Notes: a model not told the origin generated them from the sequence alone. A DNA stretch of 64,000 bases from Candidatus Nomurabacteria bacterium (GCA_016699085.1 CP064958.1:345375-409374), one strand, 5' to 3'. Positions 2,678 through 48,080 are shown, counted from the stretch's first letter. Translations and numbers: made by a program.

Positions 2678-2768
2678 CTGGCAATTACTCGAACTCCTTT
2701 AATAATACGCCTTATTTATCAACAAGAACTGAATTTTGATTACTAGTATTTAGTTCGATTCCACGATG
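2678..2768 (+). repeat. island end-repeat A, copy 1 (~90 bp)
   Basis: ggcaaTtactcgaactcCTttaATaatacgccttatttatcaa ... tagttcgattcca aligns with copy 2 at 3872-3963; contains tRNA T-arm-like TAGTTCGATTCCA. Confidence 0.7.
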
Positions 2769-2786
2769 GTTTAATAATCTTAAATT

Positions 2787-3443
2787 ATGAAATGCTATTT
2801 ATGTTTAAAAGAAATAATGAATGAAAAAGTATCGAGGGATCACGTACCAGCGCGAAATATTTTTCCTGAACCAAAGCCATCAAACTTAATGACACTTCCA
2901 ACCCACTTAATATGTAACCAAGAGTATTCAGATGATGAGGAAATATTTAGGACTGATATTGTTTCAATAGCAGATATTGAAAATAATCCAAGCGCTAAAA
3001 ATGTCTGGGAAAAAGTAAAAAGAAGTCATGATAAAAATCCAAATAAACAAATAGAAATGTTTTCAAGGATTGAGTTTATTAATATAAAAGACCACAGAAT
3101 TCCTCAGCTGAAATTATCAGAAGAAAGAACAAAGAGAGTTATTACTAAAATAGCAAAAGGACTATATAATAAGCGCACAGGAAATTTTATAGATAATTTA
3201 TATGAAATAAAGATACATTTCCAACCAGTAGAATTTATACCTGATTTATTAAAAAAGCTCAATATAAAGGAACTTTCACTGATACTTTTTCCTATGCAGG
3301 CGCCGTCTCAAAAAGTGGGTCAATTTGGTGGATGGTTTTCTATAAACGAATTGCTGCTATTGTTAGTTTCTGGAATGAAGAGATGGAAAAGGAAACTCAA
3401 TCAGTCTAAGCTTGTGAAAATAATAATCTATTATAAAATTTGA
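2787..3443 (+). CDS. hypothetical protein with N-terminal HNH-like motif
   Basis: N-terminus MKCYLCLKEIMNEKVSRDHVPARNIFPE (C-x2-C ... DHVP, HNH ββα-Me-like) and THLICNQE; rest of the 218 aa unrecognised. Confidence 0.45.
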   Translation: MKCYLCLKEIMNEKVSRDHVPARNIFPEPKPSNLMTLPTHLICNQEYSDDEEIFRTDIVSIADIENNPSAKNVWEKVKRSHDKNPNKQIEMFSRIEFINIKDHRIPQLKLSEERTKRVITKIAKGLYNKRTGNFIDNLYEIKIHFQPVEFIPDLLKKLNIKELSLILFPMQAPSQKVGQFGGWFSINELLLLLVSGMKRWKRKLNQSKLVKIIIYYKI

Positions 3444-3458
3444 TATACTGGGTCTACT

Positions 3459-3782
3459 ATGCCAATGATAAATGTCGAATATGATAGTAATCTGGTTCCT
3501 GAACCGGATATTCAGTCCCTATCGGAAGCTATAAGGGATATTGTATCTAATGTTACAGGAATTGAAGATGTCTTTACATATGCGAATTCTGCAAGGATCA
3601 AAATTAAGATTGCTCCAATTGAAATTTTTGTCCGCATGACAGATAAGAAAATAAAAGACGAAGACGCTTTAGTGAATGACATCAAATTAAAGCTAAAGGA
3701 ATGGAAAGTAGCAAGTAATTTCCAATATCCTATTAATCTCACTTTAATACCTATGAATTGGAAGGTAGAAATAGGCATTTAA
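3459..3782 (+). CDS. hypothetical protein
   Basis: 107-aa ORF immediately downstream of the HNH-like ORF inside module 1 of the tRNA-Gly island. Confidence 0.4.
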   Translation: MPMINVEYDSNLVPEPDIQSLSEAIRDIVSNVTGIEDVFTYANSARIKIKIAPIEIFVRMTDKKIKDEDALVNDIKLKLKEWKVASNFQYPINLTLIPMNWKVEIGI

Positions 3783-3789
3783 TGTAAAG

Positions 3790-3852
3790 TAGGAATATGT
3801 ATATAAGCATCATATTTTTTCTGAAACACGGTTCGAACATCCTGCACGGTGG
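3790..3852 (+). repeat. island end-repeat B, copy 1
   Basis: gaaacacggttcgaacatcctgcacggtgg (3823-3852) is 30/30 identical to 4913-4942; upstream ~30 nt also similar; starts right after the stop of ORF 3459-3782. Confidence 0.75.
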
Positions 3853-3871
3853 TTGCACAAAGTTACCACTT

Positions 3872-3963
3872 ATGGCAAGTACTCGAACTCACTTATAAAA
3901 TAGCCTTATTTATCAAAAATAAATCACCAAGTAAATAAGATTCTTAGTTCGATTCCATAAGGG
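3872..3963 (+). repeat. island end-repeat A, copy 2
   Basis: aligns with 2678-2768 (~80% identity), same TACTCGAACTC ... CCTTATTTATCAA ... TAGTTCGATTCCA landmarks. Confidence 0.7.
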
Positions 3964-3993
3964 AATGTTTTGCTTGGTGTAACAAATAGTTAA

Positions 3994-4548
3994 ATGCAAT
4001 CAGACAAGCAAAAAGGAAAATTTCTATCAAAACTCCAGATTGTTTCTATGGAACAAAGAATTAAGGGGGCTTTAGAATATCATTTCTTTAGATATCAGAC
4101 TTTAGAAAAAGAGGGGCATCCTGTTGATTTGGCAGGCAATTTTAAGTCAGACAATGAACGGTCTGAAGCCGCCAGAAATGAAATTAAGTATGAATTAGCG
4201 GCATATCTTAATCAGTTAGGAGCTTTTTACCATTTCATTTGCTCTCAAGATGTTACACAACCCGTAGACCCTGATTTAAAAGAAACTTGGTATGATTTAC
4301 ATAAAAATGGGGTACTCCATTTTATGGACAATAAGTGGTCTGGACACCGTTCTGTAGATTGTCCCAAGAAAGAAGATAGTGATTCAGTCCACACACAAAT
4401 AATGTTTTTTGATGTTGGTGCAACTACTTGGAATGGCGAGCACTTTATGGTAAACATTCACGAGAAGTCCCTAGATCTTTGTGACCTGCATCCGAAAATT
4501 AAGAAATTTATAAACTGGGCTTTTAAGGAAATTAATAAAAAAGCCTGA
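3994..4548 (+). CDS. hypothetical protein
   Basis: 184-aa ORF, first gene of module 2; no recognisable domain. Confidence 0.4.
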   Translation: MQSDKQKGKFLSKLQIVSMEQRIKGALEYHFFRYQTLEKEGHPVDLAGNFKSDNERSEAARNEIKYELAAYLNQLGAFYHFICSQDVTQPVDPDLKETWYDLHKNGVLHFMDNKWSGHRSVDCPKKEDSDSVHTQIMFFDVGATTWNGEHFMVNIHEKSLDLCDLHPKIKKFINWAFKEINKKA

Positions 4549-4612
4549 GAATAGAAGGAATGATTGTATCTACAATCTTCATCTACAAGAAAACCAAATT
4601 TATTTACTACCG

Positions 4613-4882
4613 ATGAAGTACTTATTAATAATTCTATTGATTGCGGCTGGATTTTGGATTTTTCACAAAAAAGACGTTTGGGAAGGATTTTATTATCCAA
4701 ATGGTTGTTTAAGTTGTGCTGAAAACTATATCTATAGTCCAAAATTTGAAACAAAAGAGGAATGTTTTGATTGGGCAGATTCCATAAAAATTTCTAGAAA
4801 TAATCCCGACGATTTATTCGAATGTGGCTTAAACTGTAAATATAAAGATGGATTTAATGTTTGTGAGGAAACTGTAGATTAG
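4613..4882 (+). CDS. small Cys-rich membrane-anchored/secreted hypothetical protein
   Basis: N-terminal hydrophobic helix MKYLLIILLIAAGFWIF, six Cys in 89 aa. Confidence 0.4.
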   Translation: MKYLLIILLIAAGFWIFHKKDVWEGFYYPNGCLSCAENYIYSPKFETKEECFDWADSIKISRNNPDDLFECGLNCKYKDGFNVCEETVD

Positions 4883-4942
4883 GAATGTGGATGTATTCAT
4901 TATTTCTTGTTAGAAACACGGTTCGAACATCCTGCACGGTGG
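4879..4942 (+). repeat. island end-repeat B, copy 2
   Basis: 30-nt perfect match to 3823-3852 plus similar upstream flank; starts right after the stop of ORF 4613-4882. Confidence 0.75.
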
Positions 4943-4995
4943 TGCACATAAAACACTTGACCTGGATGTAAAGCATTCAGGTTTTAGTGTTTTAC

Positions 4996-5011
4996 TGCGG
5001 ATGGAGAATCG
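4996..5011 (-). repeat. inverted copy of tRNA-Gly 3' end (T-loop/acceptor fragment)
   Basis: tgcggatggagaatcg is the reverse complement of cgattctccatccgca, i.e. tRNA-Gly cgattctcccatcccgca minus 2 nt. Confidence 0.55.
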
Positions 5012-5094
5012 AAAGACGGAGGCCGCGAAGCCGTCCGAAGGACGTGGCCGAGTCGGGGTCGAGAAATTTTTATGCAATAAAAAATATTCGTGAC

Positions 5095-5136
5095 CGATTC
5101 TCCTCCGCCAAAGGTCGGACAAGCATCCCGCACAAA
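5095..5136 (+). repeat. direct copy of tRNA-Gly 3' end with 21-nt internal insertion (putative attR of the island)
   Basis: cgattctcc[tccgccaaaggtcggacaagc]atcccgcacaaa versus tRNA-Gly 2643-2669 cgattctcccatcccgcacaaa. Confidence 0.7.
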
Positions 5137-5330
5137 ATAAAAATTCCCTCGAAAGGGAATTTTTTACATGATTTTTCCTAAGAAATTAGAATGATGATTT
5201 TTGATAAATTGTTTCCGAATATAATAACGTCGGGCTTTTCTTCGAAAACAATTAATAATTGTAGGTTCTTTTCCATGCTAAGTAATTATTTCTCATACTA
5301 TACCACATCAATTAATTTTAAGCAAATAAA

Positions 5331-5350
5331 ATCCCGAACAAAGTCGGGAT
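5331..5350 (-). terminator. rho-independent terminator for the minus-strand gene 5365-5820
   Basis: ATCCCGA-acaaag-TCGGGAT hairpin with T-run on the minus strand. Confidence 0.55.
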
Positions 5351-5364
5351 AATAAAATTTTTCT

Positions 5365-5820
5365 TTATAAACATACAGCACGATATTGTATCTTGTCGAT
5401 GTTCACTTCCGGTTGAACTCCATGATCAATATTTAAATAATAGGTAACCATTGACTGAATTTGAGCCAGGGTCTTGTCACTTTTCTTGCCGTTTTCTTCA
5501 ATACTGATGCCATTAGTCGTGCCGGTACTACAGTCTACTTTAACTGTATATATACGTTCGCATTCACTAAAATAAAAAATTGATGTTCCGGCATCACCAG
5601 AATCAGTATTCATTATGAGTCCGTGGCTCTCAACAAAATTAACGAATCTTTCCCCGCAGTCCTGATTCGTCGTTCTGAAACTTACAAACGACGGGGTGCA
5701 TGTAGGGAAGAACTCCCTCTCTTTTGCTGTTGCATTTGTTTGTGCGTATGTTTGTGTTGTCAAAATGAAGGTACTCATGAGTACCAAGAGTAGTAGTTTC
5801 ATAGTGCAGTTTTTCTCCAC
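5365..5820 (-). CDS. secreted hypothetical protein
   Basis: signal peptide MKLLLLVLMSTFILTTQTYA; several Cys; no known domain. Confidence 0.5.
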   Translation of the reverse strand: MEKNCTMKLLLLVLMSTFILTTQTYAQTNATAKEREFFPTCTPSFVSFRTTNQDCGERFVNFVESHGLIMNTDSGDAGTSIFYFSECERIYTVKVDCSTGTTNGISIEENGKKSDKTLAQIQSMVTYYLNIDHGVQPEVNIDKIQYRAVCL

Positions 5821-5862
5821 TATACTCGCTTGTATGAGATTTGCAATAGTTTGCAGGCAAAG

Positions 5863-5892
5863 AAAAAATCCGGGGATAGGACCGGATTTTTT
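5863..5892. terminator. bidirectional rho-independent terminator downstream of hup
   Basis: AAAAAATCCGG-ggatagga-CCGGATTTTTT. Confidence 0.7.
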
Positions 5893-5974
5893 CTTATATA
5901 TTTTTTTCTCGAGAAAAAAATTATTTGTCCTTCGAGATACTCAGGATAAATAATCCTAGTTTTTTTCAAAGGAA

Positions 5975-6247
5975 TTATTTAACTGCGTCCTTAAATGCTT
6001 TTGCTGCGCGGAATTTTGGAACTTTGACTGCAGCAACTTTGACTTGCTCACCAGTCTTTGGATTTCTAGCCATGCGCGCTGCGCGCTGTTTGACTGAGAA
6101 GATGCCGAGGCCAGCGATAGATACCTCATCTCCCTTTTTCAAGGTTGAAATGATCGCATCAATCAAGCCATCAACAATTTCTTCAGCGGCAACTTTGGTG
6201 CCGCCAATCTTTCCATGAACCCATTCTACGAGTGCTTGTTTATTCAT
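5975..6247 (-). CDS. hup: DNA-binding protein HU
   Basis: MNKQALVE ... GLGIFSVKQRAARMARNPKTGEQVKV ... RAAKAFKDAV: canonical HU/IHF fold, 90 aa. Confidence 0.92.
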   Translation of the reverse strand: MNKQALVEWVHGKIGGTKVAAEEIVDGLIDAIISTLKKGDEVSIAGLGIFSVKQRAARMARNPKTGEQVKVAAVKVPKFRAAKAFKDAVK

Positions 6248-6386
6248 AGCAATAGAAATGTGTGTGGAACTAAGTGATAATATAACGACCCGTCATCTGG
6301 TTGCGTTGTACGAAACCATCAAACGCTTGCCTATAAGTATATCGCCCTTTGTTTACAATGCAAGGTAGGATTAAATTTGACAAATC

Positions 6387-7160
6387 TTATTTTCCGTTTT
6401 GCCACGCAATGTTAAAAAGCGAGGTAAGTAAGCCTGCAATTTTACTATTTTTTACAATCGCTGTGTGGAGTCCTTTGTCCCATACAGTAAATGCTACTGT
6501 ATCACCGAAAATTGATGTCTGAACGTCCGGATTGTACATTTCTTTGGAAATCGATCGTACTTCGCGAGATTTGCCGAGAGCATCTTGCTTCTCAAATTCT
6601 GCAAATGGAGATTCTGGTAATAGAAGCCGAACTTTGATCTTCTTTTTCTCGCGTTTTTCTCGAAATGTTTTGAGTTTCTCCCTTGCAATAGTAAATTTCT
6701 CTGCTTCACCGCCAAAACGAAGAATTTCCGCATGACCGCCTTCAAGCGAGCGATAAAATGTCTCGACGAAACCATCTTCACCTGCAAGTTCTTCGATCTC
6801 GATAGGCTCCTCACCGCGAGAGATCGTGAAAAGTGCTTGTAGCTCTGGTAGTGTCCGCTCAAGAATGCTTTTGCGTTCATTGATACTGGTCTCATCATAG
6901 CTGATGATCTGACGCAGGCGCAAAGGCGAATCAATATAGAAAAATCTTCGCTTACCTTGCTTCTGAACAAGGACAGCGCCTTTTTCAACTAGCTCTTCGA
7001 TAGAAAGATGGACGCTTGACCGAGGCAAATGCACTAGCTGTGCAACATCTTGTATGGAAAGTGGCTCTGCACCTGAAAGTGCAACAATGATTTCTACTTG
7101 CGTTCGATCGAATCCAGCTTTGCGTAAAGAAGCTTTCAATTCCTGTGGTATTTGTTTCAT
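6387..7160 (-). CDS. TrmB-family transcriptional regulator
   Basis: N-terminal winged-helix GFDRTQVEIIVALSGAEPLSIQDVAQLVHLPRSSVHLSIEELVEKGAVLVQKQGKRRFFY typical of TrmB. Confidence 0.7.
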   Translation of the reverse strand: MKQIPQELKASLRKAGFDRTQVEIIVALSGAEPLSIQDVAQLVHLPRSSVHLSIEELVEKGAVLVQKQGKRRFFYIDSPLRLRQIISYDETSINERKSILERTLPELQALFTISRGEEPIEIEELAGEDGFVETFYRSLEGGHAEILRFGGEAEKFTIAREKLKTFREKREKKKIKVRLLLPESPFAEFEKQDALGKSREVRSISKEMYNPDVQTSIFGDTVAFTVWDKGLHTAIVKNSKIAGLLTSLFNIAWQNGK

Positions 7161-7305
7161 AAAATGACAAATATTTCTGACAAAAATTAATAATATCTAT
7201 AAATAATCAATACTAACAATATACTATCACAATACATATACCAAATATAGTTGACAAAATAGAATCAAACTGGTATGTTATGTCCAGATTATTCAATACC
7301 AAATA

Positions 7306-7361
7306 TTTCAAAGAGAGATTACTGGAAGTATGTTGAAGCTTGCTTCTGGTAACCTCTCTTT
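7306..7361. promoter_or_regulatory. 22-bp imperfect palindrome/hairpin ~150 bp upstream of the TrmB-like gene (candidate operator)
   Basis: TTCAAAGAGAGATTACTGGAAG-12 nt-CTTCTGGTAACCTCTCTTTGAA: 19 Watson-Crick + 2 wobble pairs, 1 mismatch. Confidence 0.4.
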
Positions 7362-7379
7362 GAAAAGGCTGTTTAAGGG

Positions 7380-7600
7380 ATAAGTCGTGGACATCGCCAC
7401 TATACGAGGGCCGCCATGAAGGTAACTTCATAGGTCATACTCACTAACGGAACTTGGCACGGGCTCCGCGAGGACCGCATCTGCTTGCCTGCGAAATCAG
7501 GATATCCTTACAAAACAGTTTGATCGTACCCGCCACGCCTTTAGCGAAAGCTTGCGCACCTGGCGGGTCTATTTAAATCCTTGTTCTTTATATAGCCAGT
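7380..7600. other. GC-rich, hairpin-dense non-coding segment (candidate structured RNA)
   Basis: local GC well above the window average; multiple short stems with GNRA-type loops (TCC-GCGA-GGA, AGC-GAAA-GCT, CCTG-CGAAAT-CAGG) and an 8-bp stem ACCCGCCA/TGGCGGGT; no convincing ORF. Confidence 0.3.
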
Positions 7601-7746
7601 AAGTTCTGCTGAAAGAAGAGTAGATGGTTCACGACATTGCCATGATGAAATAATTCATTGGGAACCATCGAACGTAGCGTGTGAGTATATGCACACTATG
7701 GAGTCCTCTTCGCTGATGTCATATGGAGGAAATATTCTTTCCTCCG

Positions 7747-7798
7747 CTTTATCAGACCTTTGAGCAATGATTCGAAGTTCTGTAGAGATTTGTTCTTT
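7747..7798 (+). repeat. repeat family R1, copy a (CTTTATCAGA ... TTCTGTAGAGA ... GTTCTTT)
   Basis: shared 5' CTTTATCAGA and 3' TCTGTAGAGAnnnnGTTCTTT boxes with copies b, c, d; preceded by the hairpin GGAGGAAA/TTTCCTCC. Confidence 0.6.
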
Positions 7799-8204
7799 CA
7801 AATAATTTTCATTGTAACGTTTGTACTTCGCCTGAAGTATTTCTGAAATTCAAGCGCTCCATGCGTCATCTACACGAAAAAACAAACAAAACTAAAACGT
7901 TACAACATGAAAAAAGGTAATGCAGTGCTTATCACAAGAATCGGAGATTCTTGGGGACCAGATCATCCAATCGAAATCGGCCGTGAATTTATGTGTCGAC
8001 TTCGCTATGATTTGGAACTCGGGGATAGTTGTTATGCAAAAGGAATCAGTCCTTCGCATGGCATCGAAACCACCACTATCCTCAGTATCATTGTGATAGG
8101 TAGAGTTGTAATCTTTAAAACTTACAATTCGGTTTATATGGTTCAGCCATTATACCGAACATATCGTTTTAAAGGTTAAAAATCTGGGAAGCTCTGCTTC
8201 CCAT

Positions 8205-8256
8205 CTTTATCAGAATCGTGATCAAGTATCGTGATTCTGTAGAGAAATTGTTCTTT
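8205..8256 (+). repeat. repeat family R1, copy b
   Basis: ctttatcagaatcgtgatcaagtatcgtgattctgtagagaaattgttcttt; internal 12-bp hairpin CAGAATCGTGAT/ATCGTGATTCTG (8211-8239). Confidence 0.65.
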
Positions 8257-8264
8257 ATAAAGAT

Positions 8265-8312
8265 GTGATTAGTTACCTTAGTTTCTCATGGTGATTAAGG
8301 TAACTAATCACA
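8265..8312. repeat. 17-bp perfect-stem hairpin (TGTGATTAGTTACCTTA ... TAAGGTAACTAATCACA)
   Basis: arms 8265-8281 and 8296-8312, 14-nt loop; sits just upstream of a 48-aa membrane ORF (8321-8467). Confidence 0.6.
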
Positions 8313-8424
8313 TTCAAATTATGAAAAAAATTAAGGAATCAATTAATAATACGATTGATAACAATATCTGGATATTCGCTGTCATTGTTGTAGGTATCTG
8401 CGGGATTAGTCACTTGTTAGTAAC

Positions 8425-8745
8425 CTATACCGCGTTGGGTGAAGTATTCAGAGCGATGAAGCCGTAGGTAGCGTGTATGATTTCTTGAAGGTCTAACATG
8501 CCTTTCGCCGCAAGCGATAAAAGTGGTTCTAGCAGTTTCACCAACCTCTCATAGATCCCTCTTTTCGAAAGAATAAGGATCGCAAACCGGGGAAGGGAGT
8601 TCAGGCTAGTCTCCAAGTGGCGATAGAGTGCAAGATCTCTGTCAAAGCGGAATCCATCGGCTGATGGAGTAATCTCGGTCGCACCGAGTAGGAGAAAACG
8701 CATCGGAATGACGTTGCGAGTAACTCTATAGCTTTTGGGCAACAA
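8425..8745 (-). CDS. hypothetical protein (doubtful)
   Basis: 106-aa ORF in a repeat-rich region; no domain; overlaps a plus-strand terminator/repeat, so it may be non-coding. Confidence 0.2.
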   Translation of the reverse strand: MLPKSYRVTRNVIPMRFLLLGATEITPSADGFRFDRDLALYRHLETSLNSLPRFAILILSKRGIYERLVKLLEPLLSLAAKGMLDLQEIIHATYGFIALNTSPNAV

Positions 8746-8800
8746 ATGTTGCCCTGATTTTTGAGAACTTAATTACGATTGAGTTTTCAAAATGAAATTG
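8700..8800 (+). repeat. repeat family R2, copy a (includes terminator GGGCAAC-aaat-GTTGCCC + TGATTTTTGAGAAC)
   Basis: ~100 bp alignable with 10600-10695; hairpin 8737-8754 followed by T-run; shared GTTTTCAAAATGAAA tail. Confidence 0.65.
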
Positions 8801-8874
8801 TTCTTTGTAAACGTTCGAAAAGAATATAGTTGGCATTATTGCGCATATAGTGCTCAGTATATTCTTTTCGAACT

Positions 8875-9525
8875 ATGGAAAACACAAACACATTTCCTGT
8901 ATATTGGATTACTCTTGCACATACGCATGCCACAAATGGCCTCGCAGCCTTTGCTCGCACAAAACGCGTGAGTGCTTTGATTCATGCTATTGAAAATATT
9001 GCTTCTGATTTAACTAAGGCAAAAGTTTTGCCGCGTCAAATCAGTTATGATACGAGCTCAGTAATTGAGGTGCTTACGGACTATAAAAAACGGTTCGTTG
9101 AACATTCTCCAGAAACGAAGAACTGGGATTCATGGCGTCTCGTGTCGCATAAAAATGCATTAAAGAGTTTACAGAATAGACTGGAATGGGCGATGATCGG
9201 ACTTGTGCGGGCACTAAAGTATCAAGCACTTGAGCACAAAATTTATGTCCGAGATTGGAGAGGTGATCGCACATTATATATCGCGAATGACTACTGCTAC
9301 TTTCAAGTTACCGGCTCTTGCCAGAACCAAGGCTGTGAGACTTGCCGTAAAAGGCTTCGCGAAATGAAATATGCACTCAATCAGGCTGATATTACTTTTA
9401 GTTATGCATGGGAACTTTCCAAGAACGTGACTTTCTTCAAGATCGAATTGCCGTCGAAAGACATTCGATCGATTGATGAAGTGAAAAGTGCGCTTGCGAA
9501 AGCCGGAGTGTATATCCATACATAG
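8875..9525 (+). CDS. hypothetical protein
   Basis: 216-aa ORF followed by the terminator GGGCGAC-gaattc-GGTCGCCC (9531-9552); no recognisable domain. Confidence 0.45.
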   Translation: MENTNTFPVYWITLAHTHATNGLAAFARTKRVSALIHAIENIASDLTKAKVLPRQISYDTSSVIEVLTDYKKRFVEHSPETKNWDSWRLVSHKNALKSLQNRLEWAMIGLVRALKYQALEHKIYVRDWRGDRTLYIANDYCYFQVTGSCQNQGCETCRKRLREMKYALNQADITFSYAWELSKNVTFFKIELPSKDIRSIDEVKSALAKAGVYIHT

Positions 9526-9958
9526 GATTGGGGCGACGAATTCGGTCGCCCATGTTATTTAGCTCGGTACAAACGTAGTGAGCTAATCGCATGTGTTCTA
9601 TCGATCACAAAAATCACGACGGGGAGACCGATGAAGCCCCAGGATTGTTTGCGCAGGCAATCTGAATCATTGGCTTGGGCGTGTGTAGATGAAATGAATT
9701 GCGGATGCTGGGGTGAAACAGTATCGGATCATGTGTAATCTATGTATTCCAATGGAGCTCAGTTTACCCAAGTGAGGTGAATTGAGTATCGTATGCGGTG
9801 GTGGTACGGACGCGTCGTACTCCTTGACGGGAGGAGATGTTTCTTTTGAAACATTGAGATGTGCATCATCGAGGCAACATGCTTCCAGAAATACATCAAG
9901 GTGCTTTGCCAGTGTCTTGATGTGTAGAAAAGCCAATCTGTCTACGGATGGATTGGCT

Positions 9959-10010
9959 CTTTATCAGAATCGTGATCAACGATCGTGATTCTGTAGAGAT
10001 AAAGTTCTTT
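9959..10010 (+). repeat. repeat family R1, copy c
   Basis: ctttatcagaatcgtgatcaacgatcgtgattctgtagagataaagttcttt, hairpin 9965-9993; ends 17 nt before the ATG at 10027. Confidence 0.65.
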
Positions 10011-10026
10011 TCATAAAAAAACAAAT

Positions 10027-10413
10027 ATGGGCAACCAAGTTGAAAAAATTATTATTGTGCAAAGGCATCAAGAAAATTTGAACAGTATACGGGAAATGGT
10101 GGCGGAAAATCTGCCATCCTGTCTGAGTATTATGACGTTTTTTACTTCGCCAGAAGATGCACTTCGTGCGGCAGCTGGGAGCAACAAGAAAACAATTGTT
10201 ATTTCCGGGAACGTCTTCGAGGAGACCAATCTCGATGGCGATTGGTTCGCTCGAGAATTTAAAGCGAATATGAGTGATGTAAAAGTGTATTGTTACTCAG
10301 TTTGCCCAAGTGGTGGTGAACATTGGGACGGATTGATTGTAAAGGAACAAGGTACATGCGCTACCGGCGATCATGCCAGTTTGATTGAATTCTTGCGTGC
10401 AGGATTGAAATAA
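10027..10413 (+). CDS. hypothetical protein
   Basis: 128-aa ORF directly downstream of R1c; weak resemblance to a degenerate receiver-like alpha/beta fold only. Confidence 0.4.
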   Translation: MGNQVEKIIIVQRHQENLNSIREMVAENLPSCLSIMTFFTSPEDALRAAAGSNKKTIVISGNVFEETNLDGDWFAREFKANMSDVKVYCYSVCPSGGEHWDGLIVKEQGTCATGDHASLIEFLRAGLK

Positions 10414-10450
10414 TGGTGCATAATATTTTTTCACTAAACCAAATGAACTT

Positions 10451-10624
10451 ATGATTGTAAGCATTACCGAAGAAAAAAAGCGTAAGCTCTATGCTACTGC
10501 CAACAAACTTTTAGCACGCAATAATTTTGCATTTGACGGCACGCCGAGAGAGAAAATGAAGAGAGGACAGAGACATTTTGAAAAAAGGATTATTATGACG
10601 CCGATGGGTAACGGAAGCAGGTAG
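10451..10624 (+). CDS. small hypothetical protein (57 aa), not in the ORF track
   Basis: ATG at 10451, stop at 10622-10624 (MIVSITEEKKRKLYATANKLL...); immediately followed by R2b terminator. Confidence 0.3.
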   Translation: MIVSITEEKKRKLYATANKLLARNNFAFDGTPREKMKRGQRHFEKRIIMTPMGNGSR

Positions 10625-10695
10625 CTTCCAGGACATGGACAACAAACGTTGTCCAGATTTTTGAGAACATAAAGTGATTTGTGTTTTCAAAATGA
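10600..10695 (+). repeat. repeat family R2, copy b (terminator GGACAAC-aaac-GTTGTCC + AGATTTTTGAGAAC)
   Basis: aligns with 8700-8800; hairpin 10637-10654 plus T-run. Confidence 0.65.
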
Positions 10696-11032
10696 AACCC
10701 GCCAAAGGCGGATAAGTTGTTCATTTAAAAAATATAATTATAGCAAACCATAAGAAGAAGTCATCATTTACGGTTACCTTTGATAAAGTCAAAGAAATCA
10801 AACATATGTCACGAACTATTTTTATGGGAGTCGATACGAAACAAAAGCCATTCAAGGATAAAAGTAAATACTACAGGAAGGAAAAACATAGCAAAGCTTT
10901 TGCCTAATAAGAAGCATATAAATCCGACCTACATACAGGCGGATTTTATTTTGACATCGTATACATTATATGGTAATTTAAGAAATCGGGAATTTATTAT
11001 GTAAGATGGTACGTTTCCTGTTTTTATCAGAA

Positions 11033-11088
11033 TCTGAAGCATGGACTTGAGGTTCCGTAGAAATATTCAGTTCATTTTAAAAAAAAAC
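11033..11088 (+). repeat. repeat family R1, copy d (degenerate)
   Basis: tttatcagaatctgaag ... ttccgtagaaatattcagttcatttt; ends just before the ATG at 11093. Confidence 0.45.
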
Positions 11089-11092
11089 AATA

Positions 11093-11416
11093 ATGCCTAA
11101 CACACTAGCACACATTTTCAGAAATTTACAAACATCAAATGATGATGTTCTTACAAAACTTAATGCCATGTTTACAGGTATTAATCAAATGACAGGTGAT
11201 GAACTCGTGCCGGCATATCAGGCAGCGAAAGTATATGAAGAAAATTTGTTACCCAATGATCAATTCAAAAAACTGGCAGGGAGTTTAGTGGAAGCAATTA
11301 AACAACGGATGCGAAATGTTGCTCGTGCTCAATTTACAATTGTTGATAATAAGAATTTCAAAATTATTTTTGCTGAAGTTACTGGCGATGAATCATTTCG
11401 TGCATTGAAACGTTGA
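11093..11416 (+). CDS. hypothetical protein
   Basis: 107-aa ORF downstream of R1d. Confidence 0.4.
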   Translation: MPNTLAHIFRNLQTSNDDVLTKLNAMFTGINQMTGDELVPAYQAAKVYEENLLPNDQFKKLAGSLVEAIKQRMRNVARAQFTIVDNKNFKIIFAEVTGDESFRALKR

Positions 11417-11489
11417 AATAAAAGAGATGTGTAAATAAAATCCGTCCAAGAGTTACTCTGGACGGATTTTCTTATACTAAAAAATTCAA

Positions 11490-13016
11490 CTATCTTGCGT
11501 ATTCGATTACACGTGTCTCCCGTATGAGGGTGACTTTGATTTCACCTGGATACTTGAGTTCGGATTCGATTTTCTTGGCAACATCACGGGCGAGGTCTTT
11601 GGCTTCGACGTCAGTGATTTTCTCAGGGGTGACGAATATTCTGATCTCACGACCAGCAGAAAGTGCGTAGGATTTCTCGACTGAAGGGAATTGGTTGACG
11701 AGTGCTTCGAGTTCGGCGAGACGCTTGAGATAATTCTCGACACTATCACGTCGTGCACCAGGACGTCCGCCTGAGATATAGTCCGCAGTCTGAACAATGA
11801 CAGCTTCGATCGTCTCATGAGGACAGTCATCATGGTGACTTTTCATAGCGACGATGATGCGTGGATCAGCACCAAATTTCTGAAGGATGCGGATACCGAT
11901 ATCGATATGTGTGCCTTGGACTTCATGGTCGAGCGCTTTGCCGATGTCGTGGACGAGTGCGCCAGCTTTGGCAATAGCGACGTCAGCTCCGAGTTCTTCT
12001 GCGAGCATGCCAGCAATATGGGTCATTTCGATCGAATGTTGCAAGACGTTCTGTCCGTAGCTCGTGCGGAAGTAGAGGCGACCCAAGATGGCGATAATAC
12101 GTGGATCAAAGTTAAAGATGCCACATTCATAGACGGCTTGCTCACCTTTTTCTTTGATGATTTTGTTGATATCATCTTTGGCCTTATCAACCATTTCTTC
12201 GATTTTGGCTGGTTGGATACGGCCATCGAGAATCAAATTCTCAAGTGCAAGTCGGGCGATCTGACGTCGTACAGGGTCAAATGATGAAATAACGATCGTG
12301 CCAGGTGTATCGTCGACGATGAGTTCAACACCCGCTGCTCGTTCGAAAGCTCTGATGTTACGGCCTTCTTTACCAATGATTTTGCCTTTGATTTCATCTG
12401 AAGGAATCGCAACGTTAGTCGTCATGAGTTCAGCTGCTGTCGAAGATGCGAGACGTTGGATAGAGGTCGCGAGTATGTCTTTGGCACGGTTCTCAAGTTT
12501 TTCGGCGTTCGAGTTTTCAAGCTTCTGCATACGAATAAGAAAGTCCTCTTCGTATTCATTCTCAACACTTCGCACAAGTTCGCTCTTGGCATCTTCACGA
12601 GAAAGTCCTGCGACACGTTCGAGGGCTTTAGCTTTCTCACCTTCAAGCTCGACAGCTTTCTCTTTGATCTTCTTGATGTCCTCGATCTTGAGTTTGATGT
12701 TTTCGACTTCCTTGTCGATCTCGACTTGTCGCGCATCGAGCAGTTCTTCTTTCTTGATGAGACGCTTCTCTGTGTCTTTGAATTCTACTTCTTTCTTCCT
12801 CTCTTCATTTTTAAGCTCCTCGTCGCGATCTTCTGCTTTTTTCTTGGCTTCGTCCAAGATTCTCTGGGCTTCTTCTTTGGCATCAATCATGGTCTTCTTG
12901 ATCTCAAGCTCCATCGAACCTTTCTGTCCGAGAGATATGATGAGTCGTAGATAGTAGCCAATACCGACACCGGCAAGTGCTGCTATAGCCAAAAAGGCTA
13001 GTAAGTGCAAATTCAT
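11490..13016 (-). CDS. rny: ribonuclease Y
   Basis: N-terminal TM helix, long coiled coil, KH domain (IIGKEGRNIRAFE), HD domain (HSIEMTHIAGMLAEELGADVAIAKAGALVHDIGK); 508 aa. Confidence 0.92.
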   Translation of the reverse strand: MNLHLLAFLAIAALAGVGIGYYLRLIISLGQKGSMELEIKKTMIDAKEEAQRILDEAKKKAEDRDEELKNEERKKEVEFKDTEKRLIKKEELLDARQVEIDKEVENIKLKIEDIKKIKEKAVELEGEKAKALERVAGLSREDAKSELVRSVENEYEEDFLIRMQKLENSNAEKLENRAKDILATSIQRLASSTAAELMTTNVAIPSDEIKGKIIGKEGRNIRAFERAAGVELIVDDTPGTIVISSFDPVRRQIARLALENLILDGRIQPAKIEEMVDKAKDDINKIIKEKGEQAVYECGIFNFDPRIIAILGRLYFRTSYGQNVLQHSIEMTHIAGMLAEELGADVAIAKAGALVHDIGKALDHEVQGTHIDIGIRILQKFGADPRIIVAMKSHHDDCPHETIEAVIVQTADYISGGRPGARRDSVENYLKRLAELEALVNQFPSVEKSYALSAGREIRIFVTPEKITDVEAKDLARDVAKKIESELKYPGEIKVTLIRETRVIEYAR

Positions 13017-13233
13017 ATATTTTCAGATTTCCTTATGCCAAAAGCACCGCGTGTGCGGAATGTCGAGAGTAAGATGCAAGTTCTAAATATTGTGTAACCA
13101 TAGTGTGAACAAACATCGGAGCGTGAGAAAGCGGAATTTTTGGAAATCAGGAAATAACTATTTAATAAAAATCGATACTTTCATAGTAGCAAATCTTCAT
13201 GAGGATGTCACGAATGCTTAACCGTCAGTAGTG

Positions 13234-19130: not shown

Positions 19131-20441
19131 TCACTCTATCTTCTCGAAGCGGGCTACACTTCGTGCGTCCTTCGAAACTATAACTATCGTGTATATGCCT
19201 GTTGGCAAATCACCGATATCGAGCCTTACCTTAGAGCCAATTCCCACACTCGGTACAACAACTTGCTGTCCCAGTATATTGACGATCTTGATTTCGTCTA
19301 TATGGGTGACTACATCAACAGTAATTATATCGGTCGCAGGATTTGGGTATAGCTTTAGGGCCTGCACATTACGTATCTCATCTACAGCAGTAATTGTAAA
19401 CTCTGCTGTATCAAAGACATAAATGTCTACAAGGCCATTCCCGTTTATTGAGCCAATCATTGCATAGTACTTTTCCATGAAGGGTACTCCAACATCCTTG
19501 TATCCGATGCAACCATCGTCGTCGTAGGCTTTAAAAGTGCCATTAATTCCGATGTAATTTAGATTGCATGTTTCGACATCAATATCGTTAATACGATCAA
19601 TGACGCCAGTAATTAGCATTATACCTTTCCAGACATCAGTACTCAGCGCCCAGTGGCAGTCAATGAATGATTCAGATCCTACAGTGAGAATTCCCGTGCT
19701 TACGGTGAGATTTTCATCCATGAATTCGCCAACCAATATTGGTTGGTTAGATACGTTTGTGCGCACCTTAACCTTTCCTGGCTGGTATTGGGTCGGCAAT
19801 GTGATTTCCTCCCATATGTGACCCTCAACGCTGTACCTTTTCAGCTTTTCTTCGGGGAAGAAGATATTTTCTTCACCTTCCACAGTGTACAAGAAGCCAT
19901 CTATTACCATACCGGACTGCGTATTTAGAGTGGCCTGATTCCCAACGGGAATTACATTTCCCTCCAAATCGATTTCTACGATATGGTACACACTGTCTCC
20001 GTCAAAAGTTTTAAAATCACCAATGACGTACATTTTTTCCGGTGTTACGATTAGATCGTTTACTGGACCGTCTAAGATATATGGTGACGTCCAATGTTTT
20101 GTGGTGCCACTCATTTTTGCAAAATATTTGCAAGTGGAATTAATAAAATTTCCACCTACCCACCATGCATTGTTGAAGTAGGCACACACTTTTTTTTGAT
20201 CGCTTGATAAATCGACACCTTCTAATCCTGTGGTTGGAATAATTTGCTGCTGGTTTGCTGTCCAAAGAACTGCACCTGGTGTACCGCCAAACAAAAGAAG
20301 GGTATCTTTGTTTGCTGTGATTGATGAAGGAGCATTATTTGGCTCCCCTAATGCAAGGGGAAATTTCTGCGAAAATAATGTTTGTGCTGAAGCATTGATT
20401 GCTCCAACAAGAAGTATGAGCAATAAGGCTATATTTTTCAT
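19131..20441 (-). CDS. secreted protein with T9SS-type C-terminal sorting-domain-like tail
   Basis: signal peptide MKNIALLLILLVGAINASA; C-terminus LKLYPNPATDIITVDV ... ILGQQV ... LDIGDLPTGIYTIVIVSKDARSVARFEKIE matches the Por_Secre_tail pattern. Confidence 0.6.
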   Translation of the reverse strand: MKNIALLLILLVGAINASAQTLFSQKFPLALGEPNNAPSSITANKDTLLLFGGTPGAVLWTANQQQIIPTTGLEGVDLSSDQKKVCAYFNNAWWVGGNFINSTCKYFAKMSGTTKHWTSPYILDGPVNDLIVTPEKMYVIGDFKTFDGDSVYHIVEIDLEGNVIPVGNQATLNTQSGMVIDGFLYTVEGEENIFFPEEKLKRYSVEGHIWEEITLPTQYQPGKVKVRTNVSNQPILVGEFMDENLTVSTGILTVGSESFIDCHWALSTDVWKGIMLITGVIDRINDIDVETCNLNYIGINGTFKAYDDDGCIGYKDVGVPFMEKYYAMIGSINGNGLVDIYVFDTAEFTITAVDEIRNVQALKLYPNPATDIITVDVVTHIDEIKIVNILGQQVVVPSVGIGSKVRLDIGDLPTGIYTIVIVSKDARSVARFEKIE

Positions 20442-24144: not shown

Positions 24145-25926
24145 TTGTCTGTTATACTTGGTATAAGAATGCAAATCAAAGAAGAACAATTAAAAACTTT
24201 TATTGCAGAGGCAGGATTAGTTTCAAAAACAGATTTAACTGCAGCAATAAAAGAAGCCAAAGAGAAAGAGCAATCAATCGGCGACATACTCTTGTCCGCT
24301 GGTAAGATTACCGACTCTGATCTTAAACGTATGCAAGCCTACATATTGGGCATACCGTTTATTTCACTGCTTGGGGAAAAAATCCCATTTGAAATACTTT
24401 CGCTTATTCCTGAACCTATTGCTCGCAATCATAATATTATCGCGTATCGCAAGCGCGCTGATGAACTCGAAGTCGCAATGCTCGATATTGAAGACCTATC
24501 GGTGATTGACTTCATTAAGAAAAAAGTTGAACTTAAGATTTCTCCACGTTTGACTGATACTGAGTCTCTCAAACACGCACTCTCACAGTATAAGAAAAGT
24601 CTCAAGGCGGATTTTGATGACATCATCAAAAAAGAATCTGTCTCACTTAAGATGATCGCCGAAGAAAATGGTGAGGCAGGACTTTCAGGTAAAGAACTCA
24701 AAGCTATGGCTGATGATCTACCAGTCGTTAAGATTGTCGATACACTTATATCCCATGCAATTCTCCAAAATACATCTGATATCCATATTGAGCCTGAGGA
24801 AAATGAATTGCTTGTTCGCTACCGTATCGATGGCATACTCCATGATGCGATGGTACTACCAAAAGATGCAGCAGCTGGTATTACAGCGCGTATTAAAGTA
24901 CTTTCGAATTTAAAGCTTGATGAGAAACGATTGCCGCAGGATGGGCGCTTCAAAATCACGACTGAAGCCGGGGATCAGGTATCGTTTCGTGTCTCAACAT
25001 TGCCTACATATTATGGCGAGAAAACAGTTATCAGAATTTTGAAGGAAAATGCCAAAGGTTTTACCTTGGAAGGTTTGGGCTTCCACGGCGAAGCGATGGA
25101 GCGCATTCATGAAGGCATGAAGCAAAAAACAGGGATGATTTTAGCGACCGGACCGACTGGATCAGGTAAGACCACAACACTCTATACTGTGCTTGATATT
25201 TTAAACACTCCAGATGTTAATATTTCAACAGTTGAAGATCCAATTGAATATCAAATGCAGCGAATCAATCAAACGCAGGTAAAATCAGAAATTGGACTCA
25301 CGTTTGCTAATGGACTTCGCACGCTCTTGCGACAAGACCCAGATATTATTATGGTCGGTGAGATTCGTGATACCGAAACTGCATCGCTTGCAATTAACGC
25401 CGCACTGACCGGTCACTTGGTGCTCTCAACGATCCACACCAATTCTGCAGCAGGTGCTATTCCCCGAATGATAGACATGGGTGCGGAGTCATTTTTGATT
25501 GTCTCGACAGTGAAAACTATTATTGGCCAACGCCTTGTGAGAAAATTAACCAATACGAAAGAAAAATATTTTTTGAATCCGACTGAAATAGCTGCGCTAG
25601 CTAAAATCATAGATTTGGATCGGATGCTTACCATGATTAAGACTGAGAATATTGTGCCACAAGATGCGACCTGGGAGACGATACCGTTCTATAAAGCTAT
25701 ACCTTCTGAAGAATCTGAATCAGGTTATAGTGGCCGACTTGGTATTCATGAAGTGCTAAAAGTGACGACAAGTATTAAGGAACTCATACTAAAAGGTGCC
25801 TCAGAAGATGTTATTTCAGAACAAGCCAAGAAAGAAGGTATGATGACGATGCTTGAAGATGGTTTATATATGGCAGTGTCTGGATTAACCACAACAGAGG
25901 AAGTGCTACGAGTCGTGTCTGAATAG
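24145..25926 (+). CDS. pilB: type IV pilus assembly ATPase PilB (GspE family)
   Basis: N-terminal GspII_E domain, Walker A GPTGSGKTT, Asp box and His box; 593 aa. Confidence 0.92.
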   Translation: MSVILGIRMQIKEEQLKTFIAEAGLVSKTDLTAAIKEAKEKEQSIGDILLSAGKITDSDLKRMQAYILGIPFISLLGEKIPFEILSLIPEPIARNHNIIAYRKRADELEVAMLDIEDLSVIDFIKKKVELKISPRLTDTESLKHALSQYKKSLKADFDDIIKKESVSLKMIAEENGEAGLSGKELKAMADDLPVVKIVDTLISHAILQNTSDIHIEPEENELLVRYRIDGILHDAMVLPKDAAAGITARIKVLSNLKLDEKRLPQDGRFKITTEAGDQVSFRVSTLPTYYGEKTVIRILKENAKGFTLEGLGFHGEAMERIHEGMKQKTGMILATGPTGSGKTTTLYTVLDILNTPDVNISTVEDPIEYQMQRINQTQVKSEIGLTFANGLRTLLRQDPDIIMVGEIRDTETASLAINAALTGHLVLSTIHTNSAAGAIPRMIDMGAESFLIVSTVKTIIGQRLVRKLTNTKEKYFLNPTEIAALAKIIDLDRMLTMIKTENIVPQDATWETIPFYKAIPSEESESGYSGRLGIHEVLKVTTSIKELILKGASEDVISEQAKKEGMMTMLEDGLYMAVSGLTTTEEVLRVVSE

Positions 25927-25940
25927 GCAAAAAATATACT

Positions 25941-28962: not shown

Positions 28963-28966
28963 TTTT

Positions 28967-29563
28967 ATGTCAAAAGGATTTACACTTATTGAATTGCTTG
29001 TAACCCTTGCTGTCATCGGTATTGTGGTTACGATCGTGGGAAGATTTAGTGGTGATACATTTTATTTTTCAAATATCTTTTCACATTCACTCAATACTTC
29101 TGATCAAGCGCGCCGTATTCTAAGGCCGATGGCGGATGAAATCAGATCAATATCGCCATCATCAGCTGGGGCATATCCAATTGAGCAAGCTGCATCAAAT
29201 GCATTTATTTTTTTCTCTGATATAGATAATGATGGACTCAAGGAACGTGTGCGATACTATGTAAGTGGTACACTACTGAAGAAAGGTGTCACTAAACCAA
29301 CAGGTAATAATTTTACATATGATCCTAGCTCGGAAGTTATTATTGATGTTGTTGAGGGTGTCCAAAACGGTGCGAGTCCAGTTTTTGAATATTATGATAC
29401 TAACTATGATGGCACAACGAACCCATTAGTGCAGCCAGTTATCATTTCAACTATACGGCTAGTGAAGGTCACCTTTATTATTGATGAAGATGTCAATCGA
29501 ATGCCGGGTCCGATGACAGTAATGACTCAAGTCTCAATGAGAAATCTTAAAGATAATTTATGA
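28967..29563 (+). CDS. prepilin-type pseudopilin
   Basis: MSKG|FTLIELLVTLAVIGIVV canonical N-terminal methylation motif. Confidence 0.7.
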   Translation: MSKGFTLIELLVTLAVIGIVVTIVGRFSGDTFYFSNIFSHSLNTSDQARRILRPMADEIRSISPSSAGAYPIEQAASNAFIFFSDIDNDGLKERVRYYVSGTLLKKGVTKPTGNNFTYDPSSEVIIDVVEGVQNGASPVFEYYDTNYDGTTNPLVQPVIISTIRLVKVTFIIDEDVNRMPGPMTVMTQVSMRNLKDNL

Positions 29564-39937: not shown

Positions 39938-40109
39938 ATATGATGAATTGCCTATAGGGCTGGTCTTAATCGGTTAATAATAATTATTATAATATATTTT
40001 CCAGAAAATGCAATAGGTGACGAGTAGATGTTCTAATAGCTTCATGTTTGTATATTTTCCAAATAGAAAAACAAAAAATTTTTATTTTGCATATGCTACA
40101 ATCTTCTCT

Positions 40110-47396: not shown

Positions 47397-47405
47397 TTCT
47401 ATTTT

Positions 47406-48002: not shown

Positions 48003-48080
48003 ACATTATATTGAAATAGTTAGAAGTAATGGCTAAAGTATACCACGGGAATTTTTTACCAGGAGAGGTATACTTTATAT

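Follow-up and report, generated by a model that had tools for sequence, protein, structure and literature searches.

The chromosome of a Candidatus Nomurabacteria-type member of the Patescibacteria contains a series of small open reading frames (ORFs) separated by two families of repeated hairpins, R1 and R2, and raises the question of what these repeats are doing there and what kind of locus they define. The series lies in a stretch of 64,000 nucleotides (GCA_016699085.1, CP064958.1:345375-409374), which is referred to here as the window and is numbered from its first letter. One of its small proteins, the product of ORF57, is 100% identical to an NCBI hypothetical protein of Candidatus Nomurabacteria, and positions 5001-13200 match a single Logan contig with 100% identity. 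We propose that positions 7250-11475 form one array of co-oriented cassettes of small genes and non-coding RNAs, and that the junctions between them, to which R1 and R2 belong, act at the level of RNA as punctuation or insulator elements while doubling as recombination anchors, in a manner analogous to the promoter-early stem-loops (PeSLs) of T4-like phages; cleavage at the junctions is hypothetical. Taking array and mechanism together, we regard the chances that this proposal is right as evenly balanced.

Architecture and covariation of the junctions

The pattern TTATCAGA-N15-35-YTCYGTAGA matches the window four times, always on the + strand (7749-7786, 8207-8243, 9961-9997 and 11024-11061), where shuffled sequences are expected to give 0.00 matches. 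A covariance model of R1 places the copies at 7746-7800, 8204-8257, 9958-10011 and 11021-11075 with scores of 55-73 bits, the next match on the + strand scoring 15 bits. The R2 copies, at 8736-8797 and 10636-10697, are 81% identical over 62 nt and score 76 and 68 bits with a model of their own. All copies in the window, four of R1 and two of R2, lie within a single 3.7-kb locus on the + strand, and the dispersal over both orientations that characterises repetitive extragenic palindromes (REPs) or miniature inverted-repeat transposable elements (MITEs) is not seen in these 64 kb. Pattern, models and restriction to the block together establish that the families, proposed in an earlier note on this DNA, are real and, on the evidence of these 64 kb, that they are not generic promoter or terminator motifs of the genome. 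The fourth R1 interval given in that note (11033-11088) was displaced by ~12 nt, the true copy being that at 11021-11075.

A single modular junction exists in two versions, R1 and R2. It begins with a GC-rich, terminator-like hairpin, P1, which is abutted by a second hairpin of 15-17 bp, P2, of either R1 or R2 type, and it ends with a GUUCUUU box (GTTCTTT in the DNA) and an A-rich leader. The R1 P2 on the + strand is a 17-bp hairpin with the helix ends CUUUA-U-CAGAA ... UUCUG-UAGAG and one bulged U, folding at -14 to -18 kcal/mol, compared with -7 to -13 kcal/mol for the complement. In R2, the U-rich stretch UUUUUGAGAAC, which looks like a terminator tail, pairs with the 'tail' GUUUUCAAAA to give a 15-bp hairpin. 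That a GC hairpin precedes every R1, as claimed earlier for the window, is borne out across loci: a strong P1 ends 0-3 nt upstream of P2 in 33 of 33 R1 and 11 of 11 R2 copies, compared with 27% of control positions, which were judged by a weaker criterion. The mean P1 energy is -15 kcal/mol for R1 and -13 kcal/mol for R2. The box, or a one-base variant of it, follows P2 in all 31 R1 junctions examined and in most R2 copies, usually 2-8 nt on the 3' side (range, 2 to ~50 nt) and sometimes beyond an additional small hairpin. P1 is flagged as an intrinsic terminator, with a GC stem and a U-rich tract, at three junctions of the window (R1b, R2a and R2b) and in five of the five R1 P1s of a related locus, L145; its terminator function is a prediction.

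The junctions of the window, all on the + strand, vary around this plan. In R1a (7725-7800; 57.2 bits), P1 at 7725-7745 folds at -11.4 kcal/mol, and the segment at 7746-7800 holds the GTTCTTT box and a P2 that folds at -15.6 kcal/mol on the + strand versus -7.4 kcal/mol on the other. R1b (8185-8257; 72.5 bits) joins a terminator-like P1 at 8185-8203 to R1 and box at 8204-8257, and R2a (8737-8806; 76.2 bits) a terminator-like P1 at 8737-8754 to P2 and GTTCTTT box at 8753-8806. R1c (9931-10011; 71.6 bits) has its P1, of -16.1 kcal/mol, at 9931-9958 and R1 with box at 9958-10011. In R2b (10636-10725; 68.2 bits), P1 (10636-10655) and P2 (10653-10703) are followed by an additional small hairpin at 10697-10713 and then by a GTTCATT box at 10719-10725; R1d (10992-11075; 55.1 bits) combines a weaker P1 (-9.0 kcal/mol) with R1 and a GTTCATT box at 11021-11075. 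A 12-bp hairpin, CAGAATCGTGAT/ATCGTGATTCTG, noticed earlier in two R1 copies, is indeed present in b and c, with two G.U pairs; copies a and d have other stems, which are compensated. Upstream of R1a, a GC hairpin at 7529-7568 and a TTGTTCTTT box at 7581-7589 form a junction without P2 (7529-7595). This nested hairpin matches the abiF RNA at 25.7 bits (E=0.2), below the cut-off of 37, and PADLOC finds no match among the cassette ORFs; membership of the type III toxin-antitoxin/abiF group, which calls for a match to the RNA and an adjacent abortive-infection (Abi) or toxin gene, is not supported.

The alignment of the junctions reveals extensive covariation. In 18 R1 copies derived from the pattern, 97% of the cells pair and six pairs show double changes; when copies found with the model are added, making 32, the proportion is 98% and compensatory changes are found in 11 of 17 pairs. 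Pairing in shifted-register controls is at most 54%. Two U.G wobbles are essentially invariant, in 32/32 and 29/32 copies, and the second is not an artefact of ascertainment because it falls outside the search pattern. The seven R2 copies are 98% paired, with compensatory changes in 6 of 15 pairs, a G.U wobble in 7/7 and a U.G wobble in 6/7. The earlier note had called the R1 hairpin operator-like. However, its stems differ within one genome and covary, its length varies, and its two invariant wobbles are strand-specific, since they would be A.C mismatches on the opposite strand; these features point to the folded + strand and away from a duplex operator. R1 and R2 therefore function as single-stranded nucleic acid, most likely as RNA.

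Neither family has a counterpart in Rfam. Against Rfam 15, R1, R2 and two further structured segments of the array, nc2 and nc3, match no family even at E<=10 (positions 7000-11600), and the only gathering-level matches of the window are three tRNAs. The hammerhead core CUGANGA/GAAA with its three-way junction is not found in R1 or R2, and 7000-11600 gives no match to RF00008 at E<=10. A degenerate hammerhead was considered because UCUUUAUC/GUAGAGA resembles the stem III sequence UCUCUGUC/ACAGAAA, but the catalytic core is absent and the likeness is one of resemblance only. A triplex with the GUUCUUU box was rejected for its wrong strand polarity; UAGAGA might instead form Watson-Crick pairs with UUCUUU. 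In the literature on integrons, hammerheads and structured RNAs of the candidate phyla radiation (CPR)/Patescibacteria, we found no description of R1 or R2, and one match to the term 'hypervariable' concerned the host and not the epibiont.

Cassette turnover and the hammerhead slot

The role of the junctions as boundaries is seen when the array is compared with related loci, designated here by L numbers. In L003, the flanks are ~90% identical to the window (6349-7365 and 10419-13200), and between them only R1 and R2 align; ORFs of 105, 139, 134 and 101 aa stand in place of those of 90, 48, 216 and 128 aa. L130 lacks the ORF90 cassette: there the leader and P1 run on into an R1 with a b-type stem, which is followed by the ORF48 cassette, so that the difference from the window lies between two R1 copies. 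L130 then shares ORF48, nc2 and R2a with the window and diverges exactly after GAAATTGTTCTTT, at 8806, into another ORF. In L165, a homologue of ORF216, found by protein search alone, lies directly after an R1 (64 bits), with a homologue of nc3 and another P1-R1 junction on its 3' side; in the window the same cassette is preceded by R2. These three comparisons show that cassettes move among arrays and that the junction types are interchangeable. They also support the earlier suggestion of a variable accessory locus in a small-genome bacterium, whose cassettes differ between relatives, although not that of a paralogous locus, as the cassette ORFs are not paralogues of one another.

Some further observations concern these assemblies. 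Contigs identical to the window (L153-L156) end at 7613, 8777, 8785, 10731 and 10978, inside or beside junction elements, a pattern that would arise if repeats or strain-variable cassettes interrupted the assembly. The record of L003 (CAZLWF010000001.1), which has ~90% DNA identity to the window, is labelled 'uncultured Candidatus Saccharibacteria'; in view of this identity, and of that between the window's ORF57 and a Candidatus Nomurabacteria protein, the record is probably mislabelled.

Genes of a DNA uptake and recombination toolkit are found elsewhere in the window (24145-31050, 40017-41765 and 45906-48941). They encode type IV pilus proteins (PilB-like T2SSE, PilC-like T2SSF and an N-methyl pilin) as well as RecJ and ComEC, the latter together with an ORF that has a metallo-beta-lactamase domain. 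In the Pfam-scanned or annotated ORFs of the window and beside the arrays, we found neither a recombinase of the tyrosine, serine or HUH type nor a Phage_integrase match. With uptake genes present and no recombinase found, transformation followed by homologous recombination at the 60-100-nt junction repeats would be the simplest route of cassette turnover.

The R1-end pattern gave 13 matches in 185,579 species genomes. Six have the complete architecture, comprising P1, the box and a P2 whose stem differs but is stable, and all six are labelled CPR/Patescibacteria (Paceibacterota, Lloydbacteria, 'Saccharibacteria' and unclassified); the remaining seven look like chance matches. A scan of metagenomes gave 25 matches, 12 of them with the full architecture. 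Same-strand R1 arrays are present in L145 and L150 (five copies each), L003 (three), and L165, L012, L149 and L001 (two each), and the R2 model detected copies outside its seed set in L158-160 (73 bits), L008 and L163. Both families are thus conserved across several lineages of Patescibacteria. A viral origin was also considered, as a loose R1 pattern matched 113 viral contigs; of these, 100 were scanned with the model and none proved to contain a true R1, and the matches were taken as chance.

Six type III hammerhead ribozymes (RF00008) occur in the related loci, two in L145 (49.9 bits, the one score above the Rfam cut-off, and 44.7 bits) and one each in L013 (41.2 bits), L147 (39.3 bits), L150 (36.6 bits) and L012 (35.1 bits), the five below the cut-off having E values of 2e-6 to 9e-4. 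All six have an intact CUGAUGA/GAAA core and lie inside R1 arrays on the R1 strand, and at least four have the GTTCTTT box 0-6 nt on their 3' side. In L147, the module TGTTCTTT-ATAAAGATTTGATTAGTTAC...long hairpin...ATG, homologous to positions 8248-8320 of the window, occurs once after R1 and once after a hammerhead. The ribozymes therefore share with R1 and R2 their slot, their strand, the downstream box and, in L147, the downstream module; they differ in that R1 and R2 are simple hairpins with neither the CUGANGA/GAAA core nor a three-way junction, and the window itself has no hammerhead. As only a transcribed ribozyme is of any consequence, we place the function of R1 and R2 in RNA mainly on the strength of this positional equivalence.

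The related arrays have additional features. The motif AGRGGAAGCAGAGCC precedes the hammerhead in L147 (1071-1085) and R2 in L165 (1701-1715), and a similar form lies upstream of the first L145 hammerhead. In L145 (reverse strand), a nested hairpin with a GAAA loop, ACCGTAAATCCTGAACCGAGAAATCGGCAGGnGGGTT, resembling an element of a 5' untranslated region, follows the box of 3-4 cassettes with different ORFs and has no match in Rfam. The R1-bearing locus L150 contains, at 2966-3650, two adjoining ORFs that by eye resemble an antitoxin and a PemK-MazF-type toxin and are a candidate pair. It also has two paralogous ORFs with an XRE helix-turn-helix (HTH), each after an R1; the one tested matched Pfam HTH_3.

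Genes, RNAs and flanks of the array

A sigma70-like promoter, TTGACA-17-TATGTT with TG, lies at 7251-7279 on the + strand, is directed into the array and is kept in sequence in L003. The array of L145, from a distant groundwater Patescibacterium, begins in the same way, with a perfect 12/12 TTGACA-16-TATAAT promoter and a leader of ~0.5 kb, after which come five co-oriented R1 junctions with small ORFs. In both there is one strong consensus promoter, at the array start, and a simple sigma70 scan, which non-canonical promoters may escape, found none at the junctions of either. A sigma70 promoter within R1 or R2 was rejected on the same scan and because the hexamer spacings of 21-27 nt do not fit. 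Shine-Dalgarno-like sequences are absent upstream of the ~50 ORFs examined across the window; in many of its genes an A-rich TTCATAAAAAA leader lies ~20 nt upstream of the ATG.

The leader of the array starts with a long hairpin or palindrome with 23-nt arms at 7306-7365 (+ strand; inverted repeat I4), which is kept in L003, L008 and L158-160 and visible in L165, that is, in four other lineages, and which could be a 5' stem-loop or the operator of the neighbouring regulator. A conserved non-coding segment on the + strand at 7609-7724, before the first R1, is 75-76% identical to L003 and L130, where the sequence around it cannot be aligned. The regulator gene, at 6387-7160 on the - strand, is divergent from the array and encodes a TrmB-like winged-helix protein with Pfam TrmB and MarR_2 matches; its homologues adjoin equivalent arrays of small ORFs in other lineages of Patescibacteria, in divergent or co-directional orientation. 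At the other end, the gene for RNase Y (11490-13016, - strand; Pfam matches) is convergent to the array, and a hairpin at 11434-11473 (inverted repeat I13), common to both, is where the array ends. The equivalent neighbourhood in L145 comprises HU, RNase Y, ClpP and the TrmB-like gene.

The cassette genes are all on the + strand. ORF90 (7907-8179; 90 aa) has no detectable family, and its whole cassette is absent in L130. The leader of the next cassette contains a 17-bp perfect hairpin (8264-8312; arms 8264-8280 and 8296-8312), as reported earlier. The ORF of that cassette, ORF48 (8321-8467; 48 aa, with a predicted membrane helix), is kept in L130 as an ORF of 49 aa. A hairpin with 27-nt arms (8813-8873; inverted repeat I3) directly precedes ORF216 (8875-9525; 216 aa), and a terminator-like hairpin (9531-9551) follows it. 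ORF216 is a near-orphan, with only two cluster representatives, and one homologous cluster, among 1.84 billion, the homologue being the 44% identical protein of the R1 array L165; an AlphaFold model based on this two-sequence alignment is poor, with a predicted local distance difference test score (pLDDT) of 64 and a predicted template-modelling score (pTM) of 0.52. ORF128 (10027-10413; 128 aa) has no detectable family; the idea that it is a receiver domain was dropped because a BLASTP comparison with the REC-like cassette of L130 was not significant.

ORF57 (10451-10624) encodes a basic protein of 57 aa with a ratio of non-synonymous to synonymous substitution (dN/dS) of 0.18 relative to L003, and its family recurs in L013, L159/160, L163/164, L008 and L165. 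A small Lys-rich ORF follows at 10740-10907 (dN/dS 0.14 relative to L003; family in L159 and L165). Its frame is open from 10740, where the window has ATA and relatives (L003) have ATG, and an ATG in the same frame 22 codons further on, at 10806, would yield a peptide of 33 aa; either the start codon has shifted or initiation is non-canonical. The terminal cassette carries ORF107 (11093-11416; 107 aa), which is lineage-restricted, with just one homologous cluster found, and has a dN/dS of 0.12 relative to L003. The ORF57 and Lys-rich families, both of tiny basic proteins that recur at these loci across lineages, form a conserved core amid variable cassettes.

The dN/dS values of 0.12-0.18 for the ORFs common to the window and L003, far from the value of ~1 that would deny them a coding signal, indicate that these are real genes under purifying selection. 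The list of small ORFs in the earlier note can be kept for those of 90, 48, 216, 128, 57 and 107 aa; its 74-aa ORF (10780-11004) was read in the wrong frame, the conserved frame there being that of the Lys-rich peptide (10740/10806-10907). The view of the block as small-protein cassettes bounded by conserved junction units is upheld. Searches of all cassette ORFs of the window with Pfam, PHROGs and PADLOC gave nothing significant, and the cassette ORFs of other arrays gave only sub-threshold matches to receiver domains, zinc ribbons and one XRE HTH.

The stretches at 8468-8735 and 9552-9935, previously described as low-coding, are not junk but structured non-coding RNAs. The first, nc2 (8468-8735, + strand), belongs to the ORF48 cassette and shares near-identical conserved blocks with L130. 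Both arms of its hairpins have diverged, and compensatory changes account for 17 of 71 predicted pairs. The second, nc3 (9552-9930, + strand), belongs to the ORF216 cassette and folds with z = -4.8 relative to shuffled sequences; its core, ~9620-9740, is ~90% identical to L165, while the adjacent protein is 44% identical. As their alignments comprise two or three sequences each, the structures of nc2, nc3 and the leader segment 7609-7724, for which Rfam likewise gives no match, are provisional; at least two cassettes carry covarying non-coding RNAs of an unrecognised class.

Outside the array, five ORFs of 218, 107, 184, 89 and 151 aa at 2700-5900, directly after a tRNA-Pro/Arg/Gly cluster (1797-2664), have no Pfam match and may form a second variable island, from which R1 and R2 are absent. 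Two proteins, encoded at 19131-20441 (-) and 44324-45841 (+), contain Por_Secre_tail, the C-terminal sorting domain of type IX secretion, which is unexpected in a Patescibacterium.

Function of the junctions

The reading that we prefer is that the junctions punctuate or insulate the + strand transcript. At P1, transcription would be attenuated or the upstream RNA capped, and P2 would give the RNA of the downstream cassette a defined, structured 5' end, either through endonucleolytic processing or as a protective 5' stem-loop. That end, or the end made by a hammerhead, would stand ahead of an unstructured leader suited to initiation that is independent of a Shine-Dalgarno sequence, and the type III hammerhead would do the job of P2 in the equivalent slot of related arrays. 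The RNase III hairpins between the early genes of phage T7 and the RiboJ insulators likewise separate cistrons and leave defined, structured RNA ends; the R1 and R2 stems, at 15-17 bp, are shorter than classical RNase III substrates, and the likeness is by analogy only. Because they are repeated and conserved over 60-100 nt, the junctions may also serve as anchors for homologous recombination, at which cassettes would enter, drop out or replace one another, plausibly following natural transformation, in the manner of the PeSLs of T4-like phages.

Several points weigh against this reading. G.T wobbles are tolerated in folded single-stranded DNA too, so that strand-specific structure alone is no proof of RNA. 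The near-perfect pairing of the R1 and R2 hairpins, which have no conserved internal loops, makes self-cleavage unlikely, and a cognate nuclease for them is hypothetical. Were P1 to terminate efficiently, P2 would rarely be transcribed from upstream and internal promoters beyond the reach of the sigma70 scan would be needed; read-through or antitermination would otherwise be required, a role in which the long structured leader might act. Only three of the six hammerheads have a clear P1-like hairpin upstream, their positional equivalence with P2 could reflect a common insertion preference instead of a common function, and the recombination breakpoints rest on just three pairwise comparisons.

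A bolder version of the RNA reading, which in our view has a substantial chance of being right although it is less likely than not, is that R1 and R2, taken as P1, P2 and the GUUCUUU box together, are new classes of cis-acting RNA cleavage or processing element, interchangeable with type III hammerheads on an integrase-less, RNA-punctuated platform headed by the TrmB-like regulator. Cleavage would then be either autocatalytic or the work of a nuclease specific to Patescibacteria, and ultra-small epibiotic bacteria would in this way express and exchange orphan mini-proteins and structured RNAs.

PeSLs are short, conserved, composite intergenic motifs of T4-like phages with a stem-loop that contains G-T pairs; they are concentrated in hyperplastic regions, directly upstream of orphan small ORFs, and indel and replacement breakpoints at them between close relatives have been attributed to homologous recombination (Arbiol et al. 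2010, PMC2839356; Comeau et al. 2014, PMC4122927). A stem-loop terminator, a place before orphan ORFs in a hyperplastic region and breakpoints within the motif are all found here. The junctions could thus be composite terminator-promoter modules of this type, acting as DNA: P1 would terminate, a separate non-canonical promoter within or beyond P2 and the GTTCTTT-TAnAAn sequence would serve each cassette, and P2 would be an attenuator or a mutationally tolerated palindrome in a junction whose sole evolutionary role is to anchor recombination. We take this alternative seriously but think it rather improbable. P1 with its U-rich tail does score as an intrinsic terminator, a TAtAAa-like hexamer often follows the GTTCTTT box, leaders of the TTCATAAAAAA type are found before ordinary genes of the window too, and PeSLs, likewise tied to orphan ORFs and indel breakpoints, may have their stem-loop between -35 and -10 (PMC2839356, PMC4122927). 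No junction, however, has a -35/-10 pair with sigma70 spacing, in contrast to the near-consensus promoter at the array start, and P2 and the box lie anywhere from 2 to ~50 nt apart. In PeSLs, a consensus sigma70 promoter lies in the motif and only the promoter sequence is conserved there; here none is detectable at the junctions, and the hairpins themselves are conserved with covariation. Terminators and attenuators need no invariant wobbles, conserved bulged U or conserved helix ends across phylum-level lineages, and a hammerhead in the equivalent slot is sensible only if the position is transcribed. The junctions differ further from PeSLs in their two abutting hairpins and box, in belonging to a cellular CPR chromosome and in the capacity of hammerheads to replace the hairpin.

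The remaining alternatives place the junctions in DNA as well. We think it unlikely that R1 and R2 are sites recognised in single-stranded DNA, like integron attC or the end hairpins of IS200/IS605, by a recombinase that inserts and excises cassettes. The array does resemble an integron: its cassettes are co-oriented, mostly promoterless, variable between strains and downstream of one strong promoter; a divergent gene occupies the position of intI; the sites are strand-specific, have a bulged base and keep structure more than stem sequence; cassette boundaries fall right after a conserved 7-mer that begins GTT; and the competence genes would supply single-stranded DNA. Yet the scanned or annotated ORFs include neither an integrase nor any other recombinase of the kinds named above, the flanking genes being those of a TrmB-type winged-helix protein and RNase Y. 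The RYYYAAC (R'') and GTTRRRY (R') core sites are absent, the base of the stem being CUUUA/UAGAG with conserved helix ends; the GTTCTTT box is unpaired and lies outside the hairpin, 2-50 nt on its 3' side; breakpoints fall at no single nucleotide, one being in the 5' flank of R1 and others after the box; and hammerheads in place of the hairpin argue for a role in RNA. It is more improbable still that the P2 hairpins and the hammerheads are selfish insertions (MITEs, palindrome-associated transposable elements (PATEs) or REP-like elements) without host function that target the U-rich TCTTTAT tail of a terminator, as might be suggested by the TCTTTAT-like sequence that flanks P2 on both sides in several copies, like a target duplication, and by three unrelated inserts in one slot. 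REPs and bacterial interspersed mosaic elements (BIMEs) are, like R1 and R2, repeated, strand-asymmetric intergenic hairpins beside terminators, but REPs occur genome-wide in both orientations with REP-associated tyrosine transposases (RAYTs), whereas in 64 kb R1 and R2 stay within a single locus on a single strand, are invariably accompanied by P1 and box, are conserved with compensatory changes across distant lineages and have no transposase. The attC and MITE ideas of the earlier note therefore both fail on their features. Least credible of all, to a degree that we almost discount it, is the operator idea of that note taken together with the neighbouring gene, in which R1 is a duplex operator through which the TrmB-like regulator co-regulates each cassette. 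The regulator gene is syntenic with arrays in several lineages and the helix ends are partly palindromic; against this, the arms differ between copies in one genome, the spacing between them varies, the 'palindrome' needs G.T pairs that would be mismatches in duplex symmetry, and the conserved palindrome at 7306-7365 beside the promoter is a better candidate for an operator.

Overall, the locus falls outside every known family tested and is most like, in its working, a combination of PeSL-type modular junctions with hammerhead-type RNA punctuation. Patescibacteria make up a large share of bacterial diversity, and they have minimal genomes, accessory genes that are mostly unknown and an RNA biology that is barely known. 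From this locus come two new structured motifs with good support, at least two additional structured RNAs, all of them absent from Rfam, and a concrete link to hammerhead ribozymes; the pistol, hatchet and twister-sister ribozymes were found through 'guilt by association with hammerhead or twister'. The locus is also a compact model of how a reduced genome, with neither integrases nor transposases, keeps an evolvable, strain-specific reservoir of genes. Should the junctions prove to be insulators or processing sites, synthetic ribozyme insulators would have a natural counterpart in them, in an organism that makes no use of Shine-Dalgarno sequences.

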